A stretch of 7,934 bases of DNA from a virus (Monodnaviria; Loebvirae; Hofneiviricota; Faserviricetes; Tubulavirales; Inoviridae): IMG/VR virus record IMGVR_UViG_2645727945_000001. One strand, written 5' to 3'. This document shows, one piece after another, positions 1 to 7,934 of this stretch; within the stretch, counting starts at the first letter, position 1, and each line of letters opens with the position of its first letter. The position numbers and the translations under genes are program-made. The notes beneath the pieces are model-generated. The model made no database searches. It saw only the letters and a list, made by a program, of their open reading frames with translations, and was not told the DNA's origin.

Positions 1-7
1 ATAAAAA

Positions 8-38
8 GGCCGCTGCGGTGGAAAGTATCGCAGCGGCC
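8..38. other. GC-rich hairpin (10-bp stem ggccgctgcg / cgcagcggcc, 11-nt loop) flanked by A-run and T-run; inner part of the junction-spanning hairpin, possibly a bidirectional terminator
   Basis: Perfect inverted repeat 8-17 / 29-38 seen directly; aaaaa upstream and tttt downstream. Confidence 0.5.
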
Positions 39-40
39 TT

Positions 41-75
41 TTCAACATAACGCGTGTCACATTATGCGCACTGTT
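41..75 (-). other. dif-like site (XerC-arm-like AGTGCGCATAA, extended 11-nt central region, XerD-arm-like TTATGTTGAAA), read on the minus strand
   Basis: Reverse complement of 41-75 reads AGTGCGCATAATGTGACACGCGTTATGTTGAA; 13 consecutive nt match the enterobacterial dif core GGTGCGCATAATGT and TTATGTT matches the XerD arm. Confidence 0.5.
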
Positions 76-331
76 ATCAGGACTGATGAAAACCGAAGGC
101 CAGTCATCACCAGAATTGCTGTAACCCATCAATTTCATCAACTGGCCACATCAATGCATGGACGACTCACGCCTTGCGTCGTTCGTCTCGATAGCTGCCC
201 TTTAAAAGCGGCCTGGCAGGAAGCGCGTTGCGCTGTCTCCTGCTGCTCTGTAATTTCTCCCTGGCTTCGGCGGTCAGGCAGCTGCATCACATGAAACATC
301 ATCATGCCGCCTTACATGCCGCGTTGCGGCA

Positions 332-1591
332 TCATTTGCCAACCCTGCGAGCCTGAAGCACCACAATTATATCCGTCCGGTTATTCTCGTCTGATTTGCC
401 TGTAAAACCCGGCAAAAATGAAAAACCTGTCCGCGACTGCGTCAGCTTACTGCTGGCAAGGCCACCAAGCACAAGTAATTCACCGTCCTTAACATCAACC
501 TTTGTGCTGATTTCCCGCTTCGTCAGTGTCGGGCTGGAGTTAACGCCTGTCGTTGTCTTTACAAAATCGCTCAGTTGCTGGCTGATATCCAGTGTTATCA
601 GTCCGTCAAGCACAACCGGCGTTACTGTAAAAATCGCCCCGCTGTTCCTGTATGTCACAGACTGGACTGGCGTTCCGCTGCTGCCCTGATAGCTGACACT
701 GTCCAGCACCGGAACTTCCTGACCCACAGTAAACTGCGACTTACTGCCGGAAAGCACCGTAAGACGCGGATTACTCACGACATTAAAGCGTGAATCCTCT
801 TTGATCAGACTGTAAAACGCATTCAGCCCTCCAACATTCAGCGTAAACGAATTACCCCCATCAAGACGAGCCCCCACAGACATCCCCAGTTTATTACGGA
901 ACAAATCAGCAATAATTTGCAGTCCGGTTGCATTGCGGTCTGTCGTCTGGACTTCAAGAACATAGCCGCTCACCGTTACCTGCTCTGCCGGAACGTCAAT
1001 ACGCGGCAGTATTTTTTCTATCTGCCGGACGGATGCTGCCGGACCGGAATAAACCAGCACTTCGGCATCCGTTGCGATCGACATACGCGTCGATGCACTG
1101 TCTGTCGTGGTTATACCTGACACACCGCCAGACAAATAATCGACGGACTGAATATGATTACTGAAAGCCCCGGAAGAAACCACAGAGTTAAGCATTGCCG
1201 ATAAATAACTCACGCTGCGGTATTTAGGGCGATAAGTAAAAACCACATCAGGCACTTTCTGCTCAGTCTGCTTTATCACTGAAATGTAATCCACGCCATC
1301 CTTCATCGACGTGACGCTGATATTCAGGCGTTTAAGGTATGAAATAAAAAAGCTTCGCGGCTCCTGATTTTTACTCAGATAGAAACTGACAAGTCTTGTG
1401 TCTCCTGCAATATCCGGCGACAACTGATAAGGGCGATTAAAAACCCGTTGCCAGACCATGCTGATAACCTGAGGTAAAGGCGCATTGTCCATTGACATCT
1501 CCACACGTCGTGCCTCACTTTCTGAAACGGCATAAGCCGGAGAAAAAAATGATAAAAGCACAAATGAAAAGAATACGGTGATCAGTTTCAT
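332..1591 (-). CDS. pIV-type secretin (phage export channel)
   Basis: 419 aa; N-terminal signal peptide [21 protein letters not shown]; C-terminal region with secretin-like blocks (GQEVPVL, LLVLGGL, FLPGF); last gene of the morphogenesis block; ATGA start/stop overlap with upstream pI-like gene. Confidence 0.85.
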
Positions 1592-2646
1592 TTTTGCCCC
1601 CTGAAAGAAACCGGATTATTACAGGACCATGCAACAACCTTCACGCCGTCCACCTCTCCCTCAAGCATAATATTCAGCCCCCTGAATTTATTTGCGGAAA
1701 CCATACGAAGGCGATTATCCGTATCGCGCAGAAAAACATAGTTCCGGTCCCCGTCATTAAAACGCCCTATTACGCACCACTTTTGAGAAGGAGCAGGAGC
1801 GGTTTTATTCTCCGGTGAAGGCGAAACATTAACCGACGGCGAAGACGGCGAAGAACGTAACGGCGCTGACTGCTGTGCCTGTTCTGTTTTTTTCTGCGGA
1901 TTAAAAAAAGGCAAAAGAAAACTAAAGAAGAGATAAACAGAAAGCAATATAAGAAAAATAAACAAAAGAATAACCTGCGGTTTAAACAAAACCGCCCTTG
2001 CGTCAGTTCTTGTTTCCACCGCTCCCTTAACATCATGAGAGCTGTAAAGCGGGTAAATATCTTTACTGTAACGGCAGACATAATTTGAAAGATGCGTTGC
2101 CTTTGTGGTTCTGGAACCGTCGAAAACATCAACGCGATAACTTTTATGAGAAAGACCAATCAGTTTTTTCATTCTGAAAGTCTGCTCAATACGCTCACGA
2201 AGAAAGCGAGGCAACGTTGTCAATGCCTGATTAATAAGAACAAGGTCGCAGGTTTGCCCCGTTTTTTCATCAGCATAATGGCGATGCTCGGCAGCAAAGA
2301 TACGGGCATCAGATGACAAAGCTTTATCTGATGTAAAAAAACGATGACACTCATCGAGAATAATTAAATCACCTGGCTGGCAGAGTGATTTATCCTGATT
2401 TCCCTTAACCGGATAAAAATCAGGGGACATAACCCGCTCATTTTCAACATGAATGATTTCACCTGGTGAAATATCATCACTTATCAGTTTGTTTTTATAA
2501 CAATACTGAATGATTGCCTCATGATTCAGTCCGTATATATTTGAGACAATCCTTCGGCCGGATGCAACAGCCGGAATAATAACAGACTTAACCACTTCAT
2601 AAGATTTGCCAGAACCCGGCACGCCAATATATGCAGTAATAGCCAT
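1588..2646 (-). CDS. pI / Zot-like phage assembly ATPase
   Basis: 352 aa; N-terminal Walker A GVPGSGKS, Walker B-like LIILDE, single central hydrophobic TM segment ([24 protein letters not shown]); RBS agaggg upstream; position between pVI-like and pIV genes. Confidence 0.85.
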
Positions 2647-2657
2647 AAATCACCCTC

Positions 2658-2945
2658 TTAATTAAAGAATGGAATGCGGCGTATAAAGAAACGCGTAAAC
2701 ATGGCTGAAACCATCATGGGCAAAACAACATCAAAAGACATCAGATTAAGAAACCACAAAACAGAAGAAGGCAACTCTGAAAAAAGCGAGGAAATACTGC
2801 TACCATCAGGAAGATGAGTCACAATCAACGGAAGAACTTCTACAACCATAATATAAATTGCAGAGAACATTACAAACTTAATGAGTGCAGTACGAAAAAT
2901 AAAACCAAGAGCAGTATTTATTGCAGCAATAAAAATGGCAAACAT
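2658..2945 (-). CDS. pVI-like minor coat / membrane protein
   Basis: 95 aa, strongly hydrophobic with multiple TM segments; sits between pIII-like and pI-like genes as in Ff and CTXphi (Ace position); RBS aggtgg upstream. Confidence 0.55.
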
Positions 2946-2962
2946 AATTCACCACCTGATTA

Positions 2963-7071: not shown

Positions 7072-7093
7072 GTTTGCACCGCAATATATTTAC

Positions 7094-7173
7094 CGCATGC
7101 GCGCATCATAATCACATTTAATGTGTGTTGTAAATACGCATGCGCTATGCGGGTGTAAAAAAAATGGAATAAT
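7094..7173. promoter_or_regulatory. Divergent promoter/operator region between rep operon and repressor gene
   Basis: Minus-strand candidate sigma70 promoter: -35 TTTACA (rc of 7129-7134), 18-nt spacer, -10 TATGAT (rc of 7105-7110). Plus-strand candidate extended -10 TGgAATAAT (7165-7173). Palindromes: ATGCGCGCAT (7097-7106), CACAT-tta-ATGTG (7113-7125), CGCATGCG repeated at 7094-7101 and 7137-7144. Confidence 0.35.
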
Positions 7174-7208
7174 CACCTTCTATTGAAAGGACATAGAGGT
7201 AAATTTTG

Positions 7209-7421
7209 ATGAAAAAAGAAACAAAGCGCGGAGACACAACCGTAAGGATTAACGAAAACAGAAAACTGGAGCTAAAACGAAGAGTGCTGGAAATCGGTAA
7301 TAAAACAGGTGAGCTACTAAAACCATCAGAGATAGTAAACCACTTAATAGACAACTACTTAGATGATGCGGTGAAAGATCTAATAAGCAAAGAAGAACTT
7401 AAGAAAAAAAAGGCAATGTGA
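7209..7421 (+). CDS. Arc/Mnt-like ribbon-helix-helix transcriptional repressor (phage repressor candidate)
   Basis: 70 aa from ATG 7209 (ORF track starts at TTG 7206); RBS agaggt 8 nt upstream; TTVRINENRKLELKRRVLEIGNKTGELLKPSEIVNHLIDNYL matches the RHH beta-strand/helix/turn/helix pattern; divergent from the rep operon. Confidence 0.6.
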   Translation: MKKETKRGDTTVRINENRKLELKRRVLEIGNKTGELLKPSEIVNHLIDNYLDDAVKDLISKEELKKKKAM

Positions 7422-7479
7422 TCCCTTTTCCTGCATTCAGCAGACTACCCGCGAAGGATCGAAAGGATACGGTTTAACT

Positions 7480-7533
7480 GGAAACCCTTGAGTTTCCGTT
7501 GACTCTACCCCCGTGTTACAAGACGGGGGTTTA
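7480..7533 (+). other. Two adjacent hairpins downstream of the repressor gene (possible terminator or origin / packaging structures)
   Basis: Hairpin A ggaaac-ccttga-gtttcc (7480-7497); hairpin B acccccgt-gttacaag-acgggggt (7507-7530) followed by ttt. Confidence 0.3.
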
Positions 7534-7762
7534 TCCCTGCCCAAACACGCCAAGAATCATCATCATCGTGATTATCGTCCGTCGTCACGGCAGGCGCTCC
7601 CGTCCTCGACCCTGCGGGCGGGTGCGGCTGGCGTTCCTCCGTCCTCCTCCCCTTATCTTCTTCATCGGCGTGCTGGCGTCTCGGATACGAAAATACGATT
7701 TAAAAAATAGCTAAAGGAATGTAGAGTCCCGACAGGATTAACAACATCAGCTCAGAAAAACC

Positions 7763-7903
7763 ATGCACGACATGATTCTGGATTTACTAATGAAATACCT
7801 GATTGCCGGTAGTCTGTTCGGCATGTTTTTGTTCAGCGTCATAACAATAGTGTTGCCAATCGTCCTGAGGGCACACAATAAAATCAACAGAAGCAACGAC
7901 TGA
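7763..7903 (+). CDS. Small 46-aa hydrophobic peptide ORF in the intergenic region (hypothetical)
   Basis: Hand translation: MHDMILDLLMKYLIAGSLFGMFLFSVITIVLPIVLRAHNKINRSND; single predicted TM helix; no convincing SD; below ORF-track cutoff. Confidence 0.2.
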   Translation: MHDMILDLLMKYLIAGSLFGMFLFSVITIVLPIVLRAHNKINRSND

Positions 7904-7910
7904 ATACACA

Positions 7911-7934
7911 ACAGTGCGCACAATGGCGTTATGT
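7911..7934 (+). other. dif-like site, truncated by the window end (XerC-arm-like AGTGCGCACAA, short central region, start of XerD-arm-like TTATGT)
   Basis: 7911-7934 acAGTGCGCACAATGGCGTTATGT; inverted partner of the site at 41-75 (15 of 16 nt complementary in the outer arm plus a perfect 9-nt inner arm). Confidence 0.5.

Follow-up and report, generated by a model that had tools for sequence, protein, structure and literature searches.

The genome unit and its chromosomal copies

The stretch of DNA considered here, IMG/VR record IMGVR_UViG_2645727945_000001, is 7,934 nucleotides (nt) long, and we refer to the whole of it as the window. It is one complete genome unit of an integrative Escherichia coli inovirus, in an arbitrary rotation. 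Nine of its ten genes lie on one strand, all ten are intact, and the unit is compact, within the range of roughly 5 to 10 kb typical of inoviruses; it has a pI/Zot ATPase, a small major coat protein, minor proteins of the pIII and pVI types, and a rolling-circle Rep, as expected of an inovirus (Table 1). Searches of Pfam, PHROGs and NCBIfam gave no hit to an integrase or recombinase family in any open reading frame (ORF) of the window. Where the two window ends are joined, a nest of inverted repeats forms a hairpin. This hairpin is the attachment site of the phage, and its stems are a XerC arm and a XerD arm, the half-sites of dif, rather than a mark of circularity. We consider it likely, with a probability of roughly 80%, that the element is an inovirus without an integrase, of the CTX type of integrative mobile elements exploiting Xer (IMEXs), which is joined to dif by a folded single-stranded attP.

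Among 5,426 complete E. coli genomes, at least 15 contain the window at full length and 99.1 to 99.9% identity; the countries of origin of copies more than 99% identical include Pakistan, Japan and the Netherlands. All copies examined are located at the dif locus, with a LysR-family gene on one side and hipA (the hipBA side) on the other, and a sequence 100% identical to the empty site reconstructed from both flanks exists. In the chromosome NZ_CM128597.1, two units of exactly 7,934 follow each other head to tail, and the window aligns to its positions 273597-281530 with five mismatches and no gaps. Every public copy found is a chromosomal prophage at E. coli dif, either single (L054) or tandem (L001, L002, L056-L064). 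Most of the genomes examined have tandem arrays in which the copies follow each other seamlessly, and in single and tandem copies alike 7934 is therefore followed directly by 1. In an index of public assemblies, 1,004 blocks contain the exact Rep protein.

A preliminary description, made from the letters of the window, had read it as a complete, circularly permuted filamentous phage genome rather than a chromosomal slice. Much of that holds. The window is exactly one genome length, there are no host genes within it, and its ends join without a seam, as read directly in chromosomes and in two IMG/VR fragments. The opposition to a chromosomal slice is undecidable, given that a slice in the same register exists in tandem arrays (NZ_CM128597.1); from the copies it cannot be told whether the window was cut from such an array or came from a circular assembly. 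Nor does the hairpin speak for circularity, as had been argued, being internal to every prophage copy; the prophage ends lie between window positions 61 and 62, not between 7934 and 1. The copies found are all integrated; single-stranded circular virion DNA would be expected of such a phage.

A forked hairpin with dif-like arms

The inverted repeat across the joined ends, as first described, is real, and all of its stems are present in the sequence: 7926-7934 (GCGTTATGT) pairs perfectly with 45-53, as does 8-17 with 29-38, and A4-A7 pair with T39-T42. Two elements have moved by one base. The outer stem 7911-7925, with one mismatch, is there, but its partner is 60-74 rather than 59-73, and the 6-nt bulge GTGTCA sits at 54-59 rather than 53-58. 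The single mismatch of the outer stem, 64/7921, is A.C on the plus strand and a T.G wobble on the minus strand. An independent repeat finder, applied to a chromosomal copy containing the junction, returned outer arms of 16 nt (7910-7925 and 60-75, 94% complementary) and placed this nest of repeats first in strength among all inverted repeats of the unit. When the joined junction was folded, as the preliminary description had proposed, it gave a forked hairpin of 100 nt, far beyond chance. As single-stranded DNA, the minus strand folds at -42.6 kcal/mol (shuffled sequences, -14.0 +/- 2.4; z = -11.8; 0 of 200 as good) and the plus strand at -41.4 kcal/mol (z = -10.7). Rfam returned nothing over the whole window at E <= 1.

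What the preliminary description did not recognize is that the stems are dif half-sites. The dif site of E. coli is GGTGCGCATAA-TGTATA-TTATGTTAAAT. Read on the minus strand, site A consists of a XerC-binding arm, a long central region and a XerD-binding arm, and site B, inverted with respect to it, contributes the fork's complementary strand without ever being the site of crossover (Table 1). The central bubble between the arms has 11 nt in the top strand versus 5 nt in the bottom strand; the fork shows one T.G pair within its XerC arm, a TG/TAT internal loop within its XerD arm, and the 6-nt bulge. A XerC arm with at most one mismatch is expected 0.13 times by chance per window, and a XerD arm 5 to 12 nt downstream on the same strand has a chance of about 3e-4, as estimated from arm-match counts. 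No dif-like site with a spacer of 6 to 8 bp was found in the unit, in which the only dif-like sites are those with 11- and 5-nt spacers.

By inspection, the apical stem-loop looks like a bidirectional intrinsic terminator, which would lie between the convergent pIV operon and the ORF at 7763-7903. This role is only inferred because a terminator scan did not call the GC stem-loop, the loop of which exceeds 8 nt. The idea that the whole structure is a chance palindrome, or a terminator and nothing else, was ruled out: the arms match dif and the crossover lies in the arms.

Junctions with the chromosome and a model for integration

The array in NZ_CM128597.1 gives both junctions. At its far (left) end, the sequence is ATTTAACATAA-TATACA/TTATGCGCACT (the slash marks the border), that is, a dif whose XerC arm comes from the phage and whose central region and XerD arm come from the host; it can be read as AGTGCGCATAA-TGTATA-TTATGTTAAAT and is downstream of pIV. 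At the hipA (right) end, the array finishes with CGCGTGTCACA/TTATGCGCACC and then host DNA, which joins the host XerC arm to the 11-nt central region and XerD arm of the phage. The crossover with dif falls within a 13-nt block of identity (59-71) that includes the canonical XerC cut between 62 and 61, where the true prophage borders lie. Judged from the sequences at the two ends, the junctions match an exchange that would be mediated by XerC on the viral strand, and we regard this match as decisive. The preliminary description had counted direct repeats at the true borders as a sign against its phage reading. Such repeats are present, since 11-nt XerC arms (AGTGCGCATAA and GGTGCGCATAA) flank the prophage, and the phage reading stands nonetheless.

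The same junction pattern is seen in the single-copy prophage of AST240 (L054) and in ten places (L056-L065) from six further assemblies. Three types of site recur: an arm with the host G and an 11-nt spacer next to hipA, an arm with the phage A and an 11-nt spacer between copies, and an arm with the phage A followed by TGTATA at the far end. L065 departs from this in having A as the first base of the arm facing hipA. The IMG/VR fragments L007 and L008 likewise pass into host DNA beyond window position 71. In all junctions seen, the phage site involved is site A, and on the gene-sense strand each time.

When the hairpin region was used as a 127-nt query, 921 of the 5,426 E. coli genomes gave a match, and 44 loci in IMG/VR have the att module. 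The module occurs in 27 distinct variants over 66 sites. In all 27, the central region of the top strand is 10 to 11 nt long and starts with TGT, and the spacer of site B is 5 nt; site B is conserved in all of them though it takes part in no junction. Strand exchange is known to be stabilized when the central region has the same bases as dif on its XerC side (PMC3089051), and here that identity, the invariant TGT, is found. Covariation in the central stem was inconsistent across variants and weak in the central region, and it was not used as evidence.

We imagine that integration would proceed as follows. The packaged (+) strand would be the minus strand of the window and would carry the inverted sites A (72-40) and B (7913-7934 plus 1-5), which would anneal around the GC-rich stem-loop to give the forked hairpin. 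The forked stem would present XerC- and XerD-binding arms with a partly unpaired center (top 11 nt, bottom 5 nt). Host XerC would nick the top strand beside the XerC arm and swap it with dif, the common TGT stabilizing the exchanged strand, and the resulting pseudo-Holliday junction would be resolved by replication. The hipA (regulator) side would be left with a masked, nonfunctional hybrid site with an 11-bp spacer, and a functional dif would be rebuilt downstream of pIV. With the hybrid masked and dif rebuilt, further copies would therefore insert seamlessly in tandem, and Xer excision would be blocked. The RstA-like Rep would then make new (+) strands by rolling-circle replication from one tandem copy into the next. 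What we infer by analogy with CTXphi is that integration depends on XerC and XerD, takes a single strand as its substrate and is irreversible, and that tandem copies give rise to virions.

CTXphi of Vibrio cholerae (Affertcholeramvirus) is the prototype of the CTX type. Its inverted attP sites fold in the (+) single strand into a forked hairpin, XerC swaps one strand pair with dif, and the pseudo-Holliday junction is resolved by replication (PMC3089051, PMC4439123). The spacer of attP1 is 12 nt long and starts with TGTG, and that of attP2 is 7 nt (PMC3089051). Integration re-creates dif on one side and leaves a site masked in duplex form on the other, and production depends on tandem copies (PMC4439123), between which rolling-circle replication makes new phage DNA (PMC3089051, PMC4439123). 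The present element shares with CTXphi the lack of an integrase, two inverted dif-like sites, one with a long spacer starting with TGTG and one with a short spacer, a fold that has a small unpaired loop and mismatches in both arms (one for XerC, two for XerD), a masked site towards rstR with a rebuilt dif at the opposite side, and tandem arrays. Its HUH Rep is of the RstA type (Rep_trans), and the nearest deposited phage protein is RstA of CTXphi or pre-CTX (33% identity over 92% of the length, 2e-50). The gene order also mirrors that of the CTX prophage: att, a divergent small regulator, Rep, a small protein, coat, pIII, pVI and Zot, with a pIV gene at the place of ctxAB. The two differ in several respects. 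The host here is E. coli and the arms match E. coli dif; the spacers are 11 and 5 nt rather than 12 and 7; the outer arms are about 68 nt apart, compared to about 90 bp between the two sites of CTXphi; the present phage has its own pIV secretin, whereas CTXphi uses the host EpsD; and it has no toxin genes and its structural proteins have no close similarity to those of CTXphi.

Closer to home, CUS-1phi (E. coli O18:K1:H7) and Ypfphi (Yersinia pestis) are counted in reviews as CTX-type members having an attP with features of single-strand integration (PMC3089051); the reviews also describe Ypfphi as having XerC/XerD sites in inverted orientation, occurring in tandem, and rebuilding dif at its 3' end. 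The present phage resembles both as a dif-integrating enterobacterial inovirus with tandem arrays and dif rebuilt at the 3' end. In E. coli SCU-101, a tandem prophage (L004) that we term CUS-1-like from its annotation and layout, not from the published CUS-1 sequence, has a homologous att module, about 86% identical over 92 nt, with the same 11- and 5-nt spacers and the same GC stem. Its replication module, with a pII/X-family Rep as in Ypfphi, is unrelated to the Rep_trans module here; it also has other morphogenesis genes, no annotated pIV, and two large cargo ORFs by the att module. A third phage, in RM14721 (L005), has a module 94% identical to that of the window. The UPphi phages (UPphi901; Shapiro and Putonti 2020) are inoviruses of E. 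coli and other Enterobacterales found at dif in tandem, with accessory ORFs near att (PMC7307601). They have IKe/I2-2-like structural genes and Ypfphi-like genes II and V, and the present phage, with its Rep_trans, belongs to a different group. The element is thus new within the known class of CTX-type IMEXs, having an att module in common with CUS-1 and Ypfphi and a Rep type in common with CTXphi.

IMEXs of the VGJphi and TLCphi types also use XerCD and dif without an integrase, by means of a single duplex attP with a canonical spacer, and their integration is reversible. One could suppose that the replicative form of the present phage recombines with dif through duplex site A alone, in which case site B and the hairpin would be there by accident or would act as nothing more than a terminator. 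It is true that the junctions involve site A only, that an exchange in duplex DNA by XerC alone would yield the same products, and that the apical stem, with its A and T runs, resembles a terminator. However, the spacers of sites A and B are 11 and 5 bp, and the unit has no single duplex attP with the canonical central region of 6 to 7 bp of the VGJ type, nor any site of 6 to 8 bp. Site B has been kept in all 27 variants and in Photorhabdus (see below) though it never forms a junction, the mismatch pattern copies that of the CTXphi attP(+), and the reviews put the att module common to CUS-1, Ypfphi and the present phage in the single-strand class. We think duplex integration unlikely; the lack of a 6- to 8-bp duplex spacer, the restriction of junctions to site A, and the conservation of site B support integration by a folded strand over it.

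The hairpin might instead serve mainly in the virion, as a packaging signal or a complementary-strand origin comparable to the Ff intergenic hairpins after gene IV, with its likeness to dif being secondary. Its distance downstream of pIV is about 260 nt, the genome has no other large hairpin, and no other candidate for a packaging signal was seen. Against this, the arms match dif and the crossover falls exactly in the XerC arm. The module also travels among phages with unrelated morphogenesis modules, such as the CUS-1-like prophage, which is unexpected for a coat-specific signal; and an element described below (L055) has the same morphogenesis module without the att hairpin, so that, if it is viable, packaging does without this hairpin. 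A mainly virion-related function seems very improbable to us, and packaging or complementary-strand synthesis may be a second role of the hairpin beside attachment.

We give equally little credence to the idea that the element is a decaying, immobile prophage, with tandem copies arising from chromosomal duplication rather than repeated integration. All of the public copies are chromosomal, no virion record was found, and some copies (L005, L058 and L062) have insertion sequences (IS) in pIV or rep. Yet the ten genes of the window are intact, near-identical copies are widespread, the exact Rep recurs in the many assembly blocks noted above, and modules are mosaic between lineages. In addition, the ends of the arrays are asymmetric, with the host G by hipA and the phage A elsewhere, as successive Xer integrations predict.

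Several points weigh against integration by a folded viral strand. The dependence on XerC and XerD and the use of a single strand are suggested by sequence and analogy, and that the viral strand is the gene-sense (window minus) strand is an assumption from inovirus biology; both strands fold almost equally well. The junctions would look identical if duplex site A were recombined by XerC alone. At 5 nt, the bottom spacer of site B falls below both the range of known Xer sites (6 to 8 bp) and the spacer of CTXphi attP2 (7 nt). At 53/7926, beside the bulge, the pairing is Watson-Crick in some variants only: the window has G-C and L005 has A-T, but many others have A.A or A.C. A second Photorhabdus hairpin, described below, has no fork in its minimum-energy structure, the outer stems being unpaired. 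Finally, no free circular or virion record of the phage was found in INPHARED or PLSDB. A megablast search of INPHARED at "near" sensitivity (about 85% nucleotide identity or more) returned no matching phage, IKe and I2-2 included, and on this comparison the phage is not a deposited isolate; PLSDB had no full-length circular copy that would speak for a free replicative form.

Genes, relatives and the spread of the att module

Table 1. Features of the 7,934-nt window
Feature	Position	Strand	Basis or remarks
Apical stem-loop	4..42	none	Perfect 14-bp stem AAAAGGCCGCTGCG/CGCAGCGGCCTTTT, 11-nt loop; tip of the attP hairpin
Site A, XerD-binding arm TTATGTTGAAA	40..50	-	9/11 bases as in dif TTATGTTAAAT
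Site A, central region TGTGACACGCG	51..61	-	11 nt; first three, TGT, as at the start of dif TGTATA; 54-59 is the fork bulge
Site A, XerC-binding arm AGTGCGCATAA	62..72	-	10/11 bases as in dif arm GGTGCGCATAA; only window match at <=1 mismatch
pIV secretin, 419 aa	332..1591	-	Pfam Secretin 1.9e-25 and Secretin_N; PHROG 1012 "protein IV of M13" 1.8e-116
pI/Zot-like assembly ATPase, 352 aa	1588..2646	-	Pfam Zot 1.3e-22; PHROG 197, 2e-76
pVI-like minor coat protein, 95 aa	2658..2945	-	Pfam DUF2523 2.9e-9; PHROG 974
pIII-like adsorption protein, 543 aa	2963..4594	-	C-terminal PHROG 7187, 1.4e-22
56-aa ORF between coat and pIII genes	4599..4769	-	Annotated in RefSeq copies
Major coat protein precursor, 82 aa (RefSeq annotation)	4904..5152	-	PHROG 2186 "virion structural protein" 6.3e-14; PHROG 6548 "major coat protein"
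111-aa protein at the gene V/RstB position ("ssb")	5333..5668	-	PHROG 14411, unknown function
Rolling-circle initiator Rep_trans, RstA-like, 398 aa	5678..6874	-	Pfam Rep_trans 1.9e-21; PHROG 453, 4.4e-107
65-aa ORF upstream of rep	6874..7071	-	PHROG 3104, 8.4e-25
Divergent control region	7072..7208	both	Sigma-70-like promoters in both directions
70-aa basic protein at the rstR position, divergent from rep	7209..7421	+	PHROG 2503, unknown function
Mostly noncoding stretch	7442..7813	none	Overlaps the start of ORF 7763-7903
46-aa hydrophobic ORF, variable "cargo" slot by site B	7763..7903	+	Coding status uncertain
Site B (attP2-like), XerC-like arm AGTGCGCACAA	7913..7923	+	Followed by 5-nt spacer TGGCG, 7924-7928
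Site B, XerD-like arm TTATGTATAAA	7929-7934 (TTATGT) plus 1-5 (ATAAA)	+	Window boundary cuts through the arm

The preliminary description had listed a full inovirus gene set. For the secretin, pI/Zot, the pVI-like protein, Rep, the coat protein and the C terminus of pIII, Pfam and PHROGs bear this out; the labels "ssb" and "repressor" have only gene position behind them and were not confirmed by any test of sequence or structure. The 111-aa "ssb" protein gave no hit in Pfam, NCBIfam or a phmmer search of the PDB, and BLASTP found no match between it and the M13 gene V protein. A profile search of 1.8 billion representatives reached seven clusters only, and Pfam and PHROGs run on these hits gave PHROG 14411 alone. 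A single-sequence AlphaFold (AF2) model of this protein, with a predicted local distance difference test (pLDDT) score of 37, was discarded as unusable. The 70-aa "repressor" had no hit in Pfam, PDB or any other family collection searched; in its single-sequence AF2 model (pLDDT, 80), two helices form a hairpin, a shape too generic to be of use in searching for similar folds. In the control region beside it, a minus-strand promoter (TTTACA-18-TATGAT, 7134-7105) and a plus-strand promoter-like sequence (7063-7090), both sigma-70-like, are predicted. Inverted repeats of the GCATGCGC type at 7091-7101 and 7137-7147 flank the minus-strand promoter and could be operators for the 70-aa divergent protein.

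The pIII-like protein has a signal peptide, a long (GTGS)n linker and a C-terminal membrane anchor. The repeat coding for (GTGS)n, at window positions 3334-3499, is length polymorphic, giving pIII proteins of 525, 543, 549 or 561 aa in otherwise near-identical copies. The 56-aa ORF next to it had no hit in PHROGs or NCBIfam and a subthreshold one to Pfam HTH_40 (E 0.026; 15.3 bits against a cutoff of 27 bits). Downstream of pIV, a 55-aa ORF (window positions 138-305, minus strand) is called a gene in some assemblies. At the position of the ORF at 7763-7903, other phages carry unrelated genes.

The mostly noncoding stretch 7442-7813 is 84 to 95% identical to parts of small (2.6- to 2.8-kb) rolling-circle plasmids of E. 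coli and E. albertii; for example, positions 963-1088 of pLAO81 (NZ_OP242291.1) match window positions 7554-7679 at 95%. These small plasmids encode a 278-aa HUH Rep with an HPHFHCLL motif, and three plasmids of about 100 kb match the stretch as well. The strand of the plasmid rep gene corresponds to the viral strand of the phage. The folds of the stretch were not significant overall (z of -1.2 and -2.6). From the shared sequence, it is a candidate for a complementary-strand (single-strand) origin, or an ori region, common to the phage and the plasmids.

Similarity to phages with other replication modules starts at window position 127 (boundary near 126/127) and ends at 5334, and these limits therefore mark recombination breakpoints of a mosaic. 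One such relative is in E. coli E600003 (L055, NZ_CM128598.1, 6001-14636), where the morphogenesis module corresponding to 127-5334 is 99% identical. It is accompanied instead by a 2,004-nt "replication endonuclease" gene and an IS110-family transposase, has no dif-like site, and lies off dif, with a phospholipase D-family gene (adjacent to ybiB) on one side and hcxB on the other. One phage chassis seems here to have exchanged its integration strategy for another.

In a scan of one genome per species, relatives of Rep were found in two Photorhabdus loci only (Rep, 46% identical), too few for a formal covariation test. The Photorhabdus prophage starts with AGTGCGCCTAA-TGTAACCAACG-TTATGTTAAAA, after which come a GC stem of another sequence and an inverted site whose spacer is 6 nt, and in P. 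cinerea the prophage ends with AGTGCGCCTAA-TGTATA-TTATGTTAAAT. The fork is kept with another stem sequence and the host's own arm, AGTGCGCCTAA (fold z = -9.2). From these starts and ends it follows that the architecture has persisted with new stem sequences and with an arm that matches the host. In Photorhabdus temperata (L009; 18258-18373 and 7900-7930), another element starts immediately behind the first prophage with a second inverted dif-like pair (11- and 6-nt spacers, another GC stem), and upstream there is a composite site, AGTGCGCATAA-CGTGTA-TTAGGCGAACT. The sites in L009 indicate an array of different Xer-exploiting elements.

Parts of the module are also found elsewhere. Large E. coli plasmids (L006, plasmid p13C1079T-1, 4000-4069, and 481 plasmid places) have half of it, consisting of site B (GGTTCGCATAA-TGACG-TTATGCTAAAG) and the GC stem-loop without site A, directly downstream of a gene of the STM4504/CBY_0614 family and beside an IS200 remnant. 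The neighbor of this half-site was tested as a homologue of the CUS-1-like cargo gene, which occupies the corresponding position, and is not homologous. In two E. coli assemblies, CM135147.1 and JAGDML010000001.1 (L058, 6221-8869, and L060, 6419-9067), the interval separating hipA from the phage contains a gene for a 450-aa protein with a SIR2_2 domain, and the bounds of this gene are a remnant resembling site B and a XerC arm of the host type. The arrangement suggests that an earlier element integrated through Xer, or cargo with a possible defense gene, is stacked at dif.

Taken further, the att module of about 100 nt could be a portable cassette among enterobacterial inovirus backbones (Rep_trans, pII/X and others), one that can be swapped for another integration system (IS110 family) and whose hairpin has three roles, as Xer substrate, as bidirectional terminator and perhaps as packaging or complementary-strand signal. 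We offer this broader view tentatively, as a possibility that seems to us less probable than its opposite.

There is a practical consequence for annotation. Eleven IMG/VR contigs (L011, L014, L015, L019, L027, L028, L034, L035, L037, L040 and L050) end within or just past the att hairpin. With record ends falling inside the hairpin, automated boundaries therefore cut the attachment module: the true prophage borders are inside the XerC arm, and callers such as IMG/VR often cut within the hairpin.

The system is of a known kind, and the finding, correct as we believe it to be, is in that sense ordinary and opens no new question. It provides a fully annotated, CTXphi-like E. coli phage, probably integrating as a single strand, that combines an RstA-type Rep with its own secretin, and it shows an att hairpin common to different phage backbones. 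By analogy with CTXphi, the Vibrio paradigm of dif hijacked by a folded viral strand, with irreversible insertion and tandem-dependent production, would extend to commensal and diarrhoeagenic E. coli.

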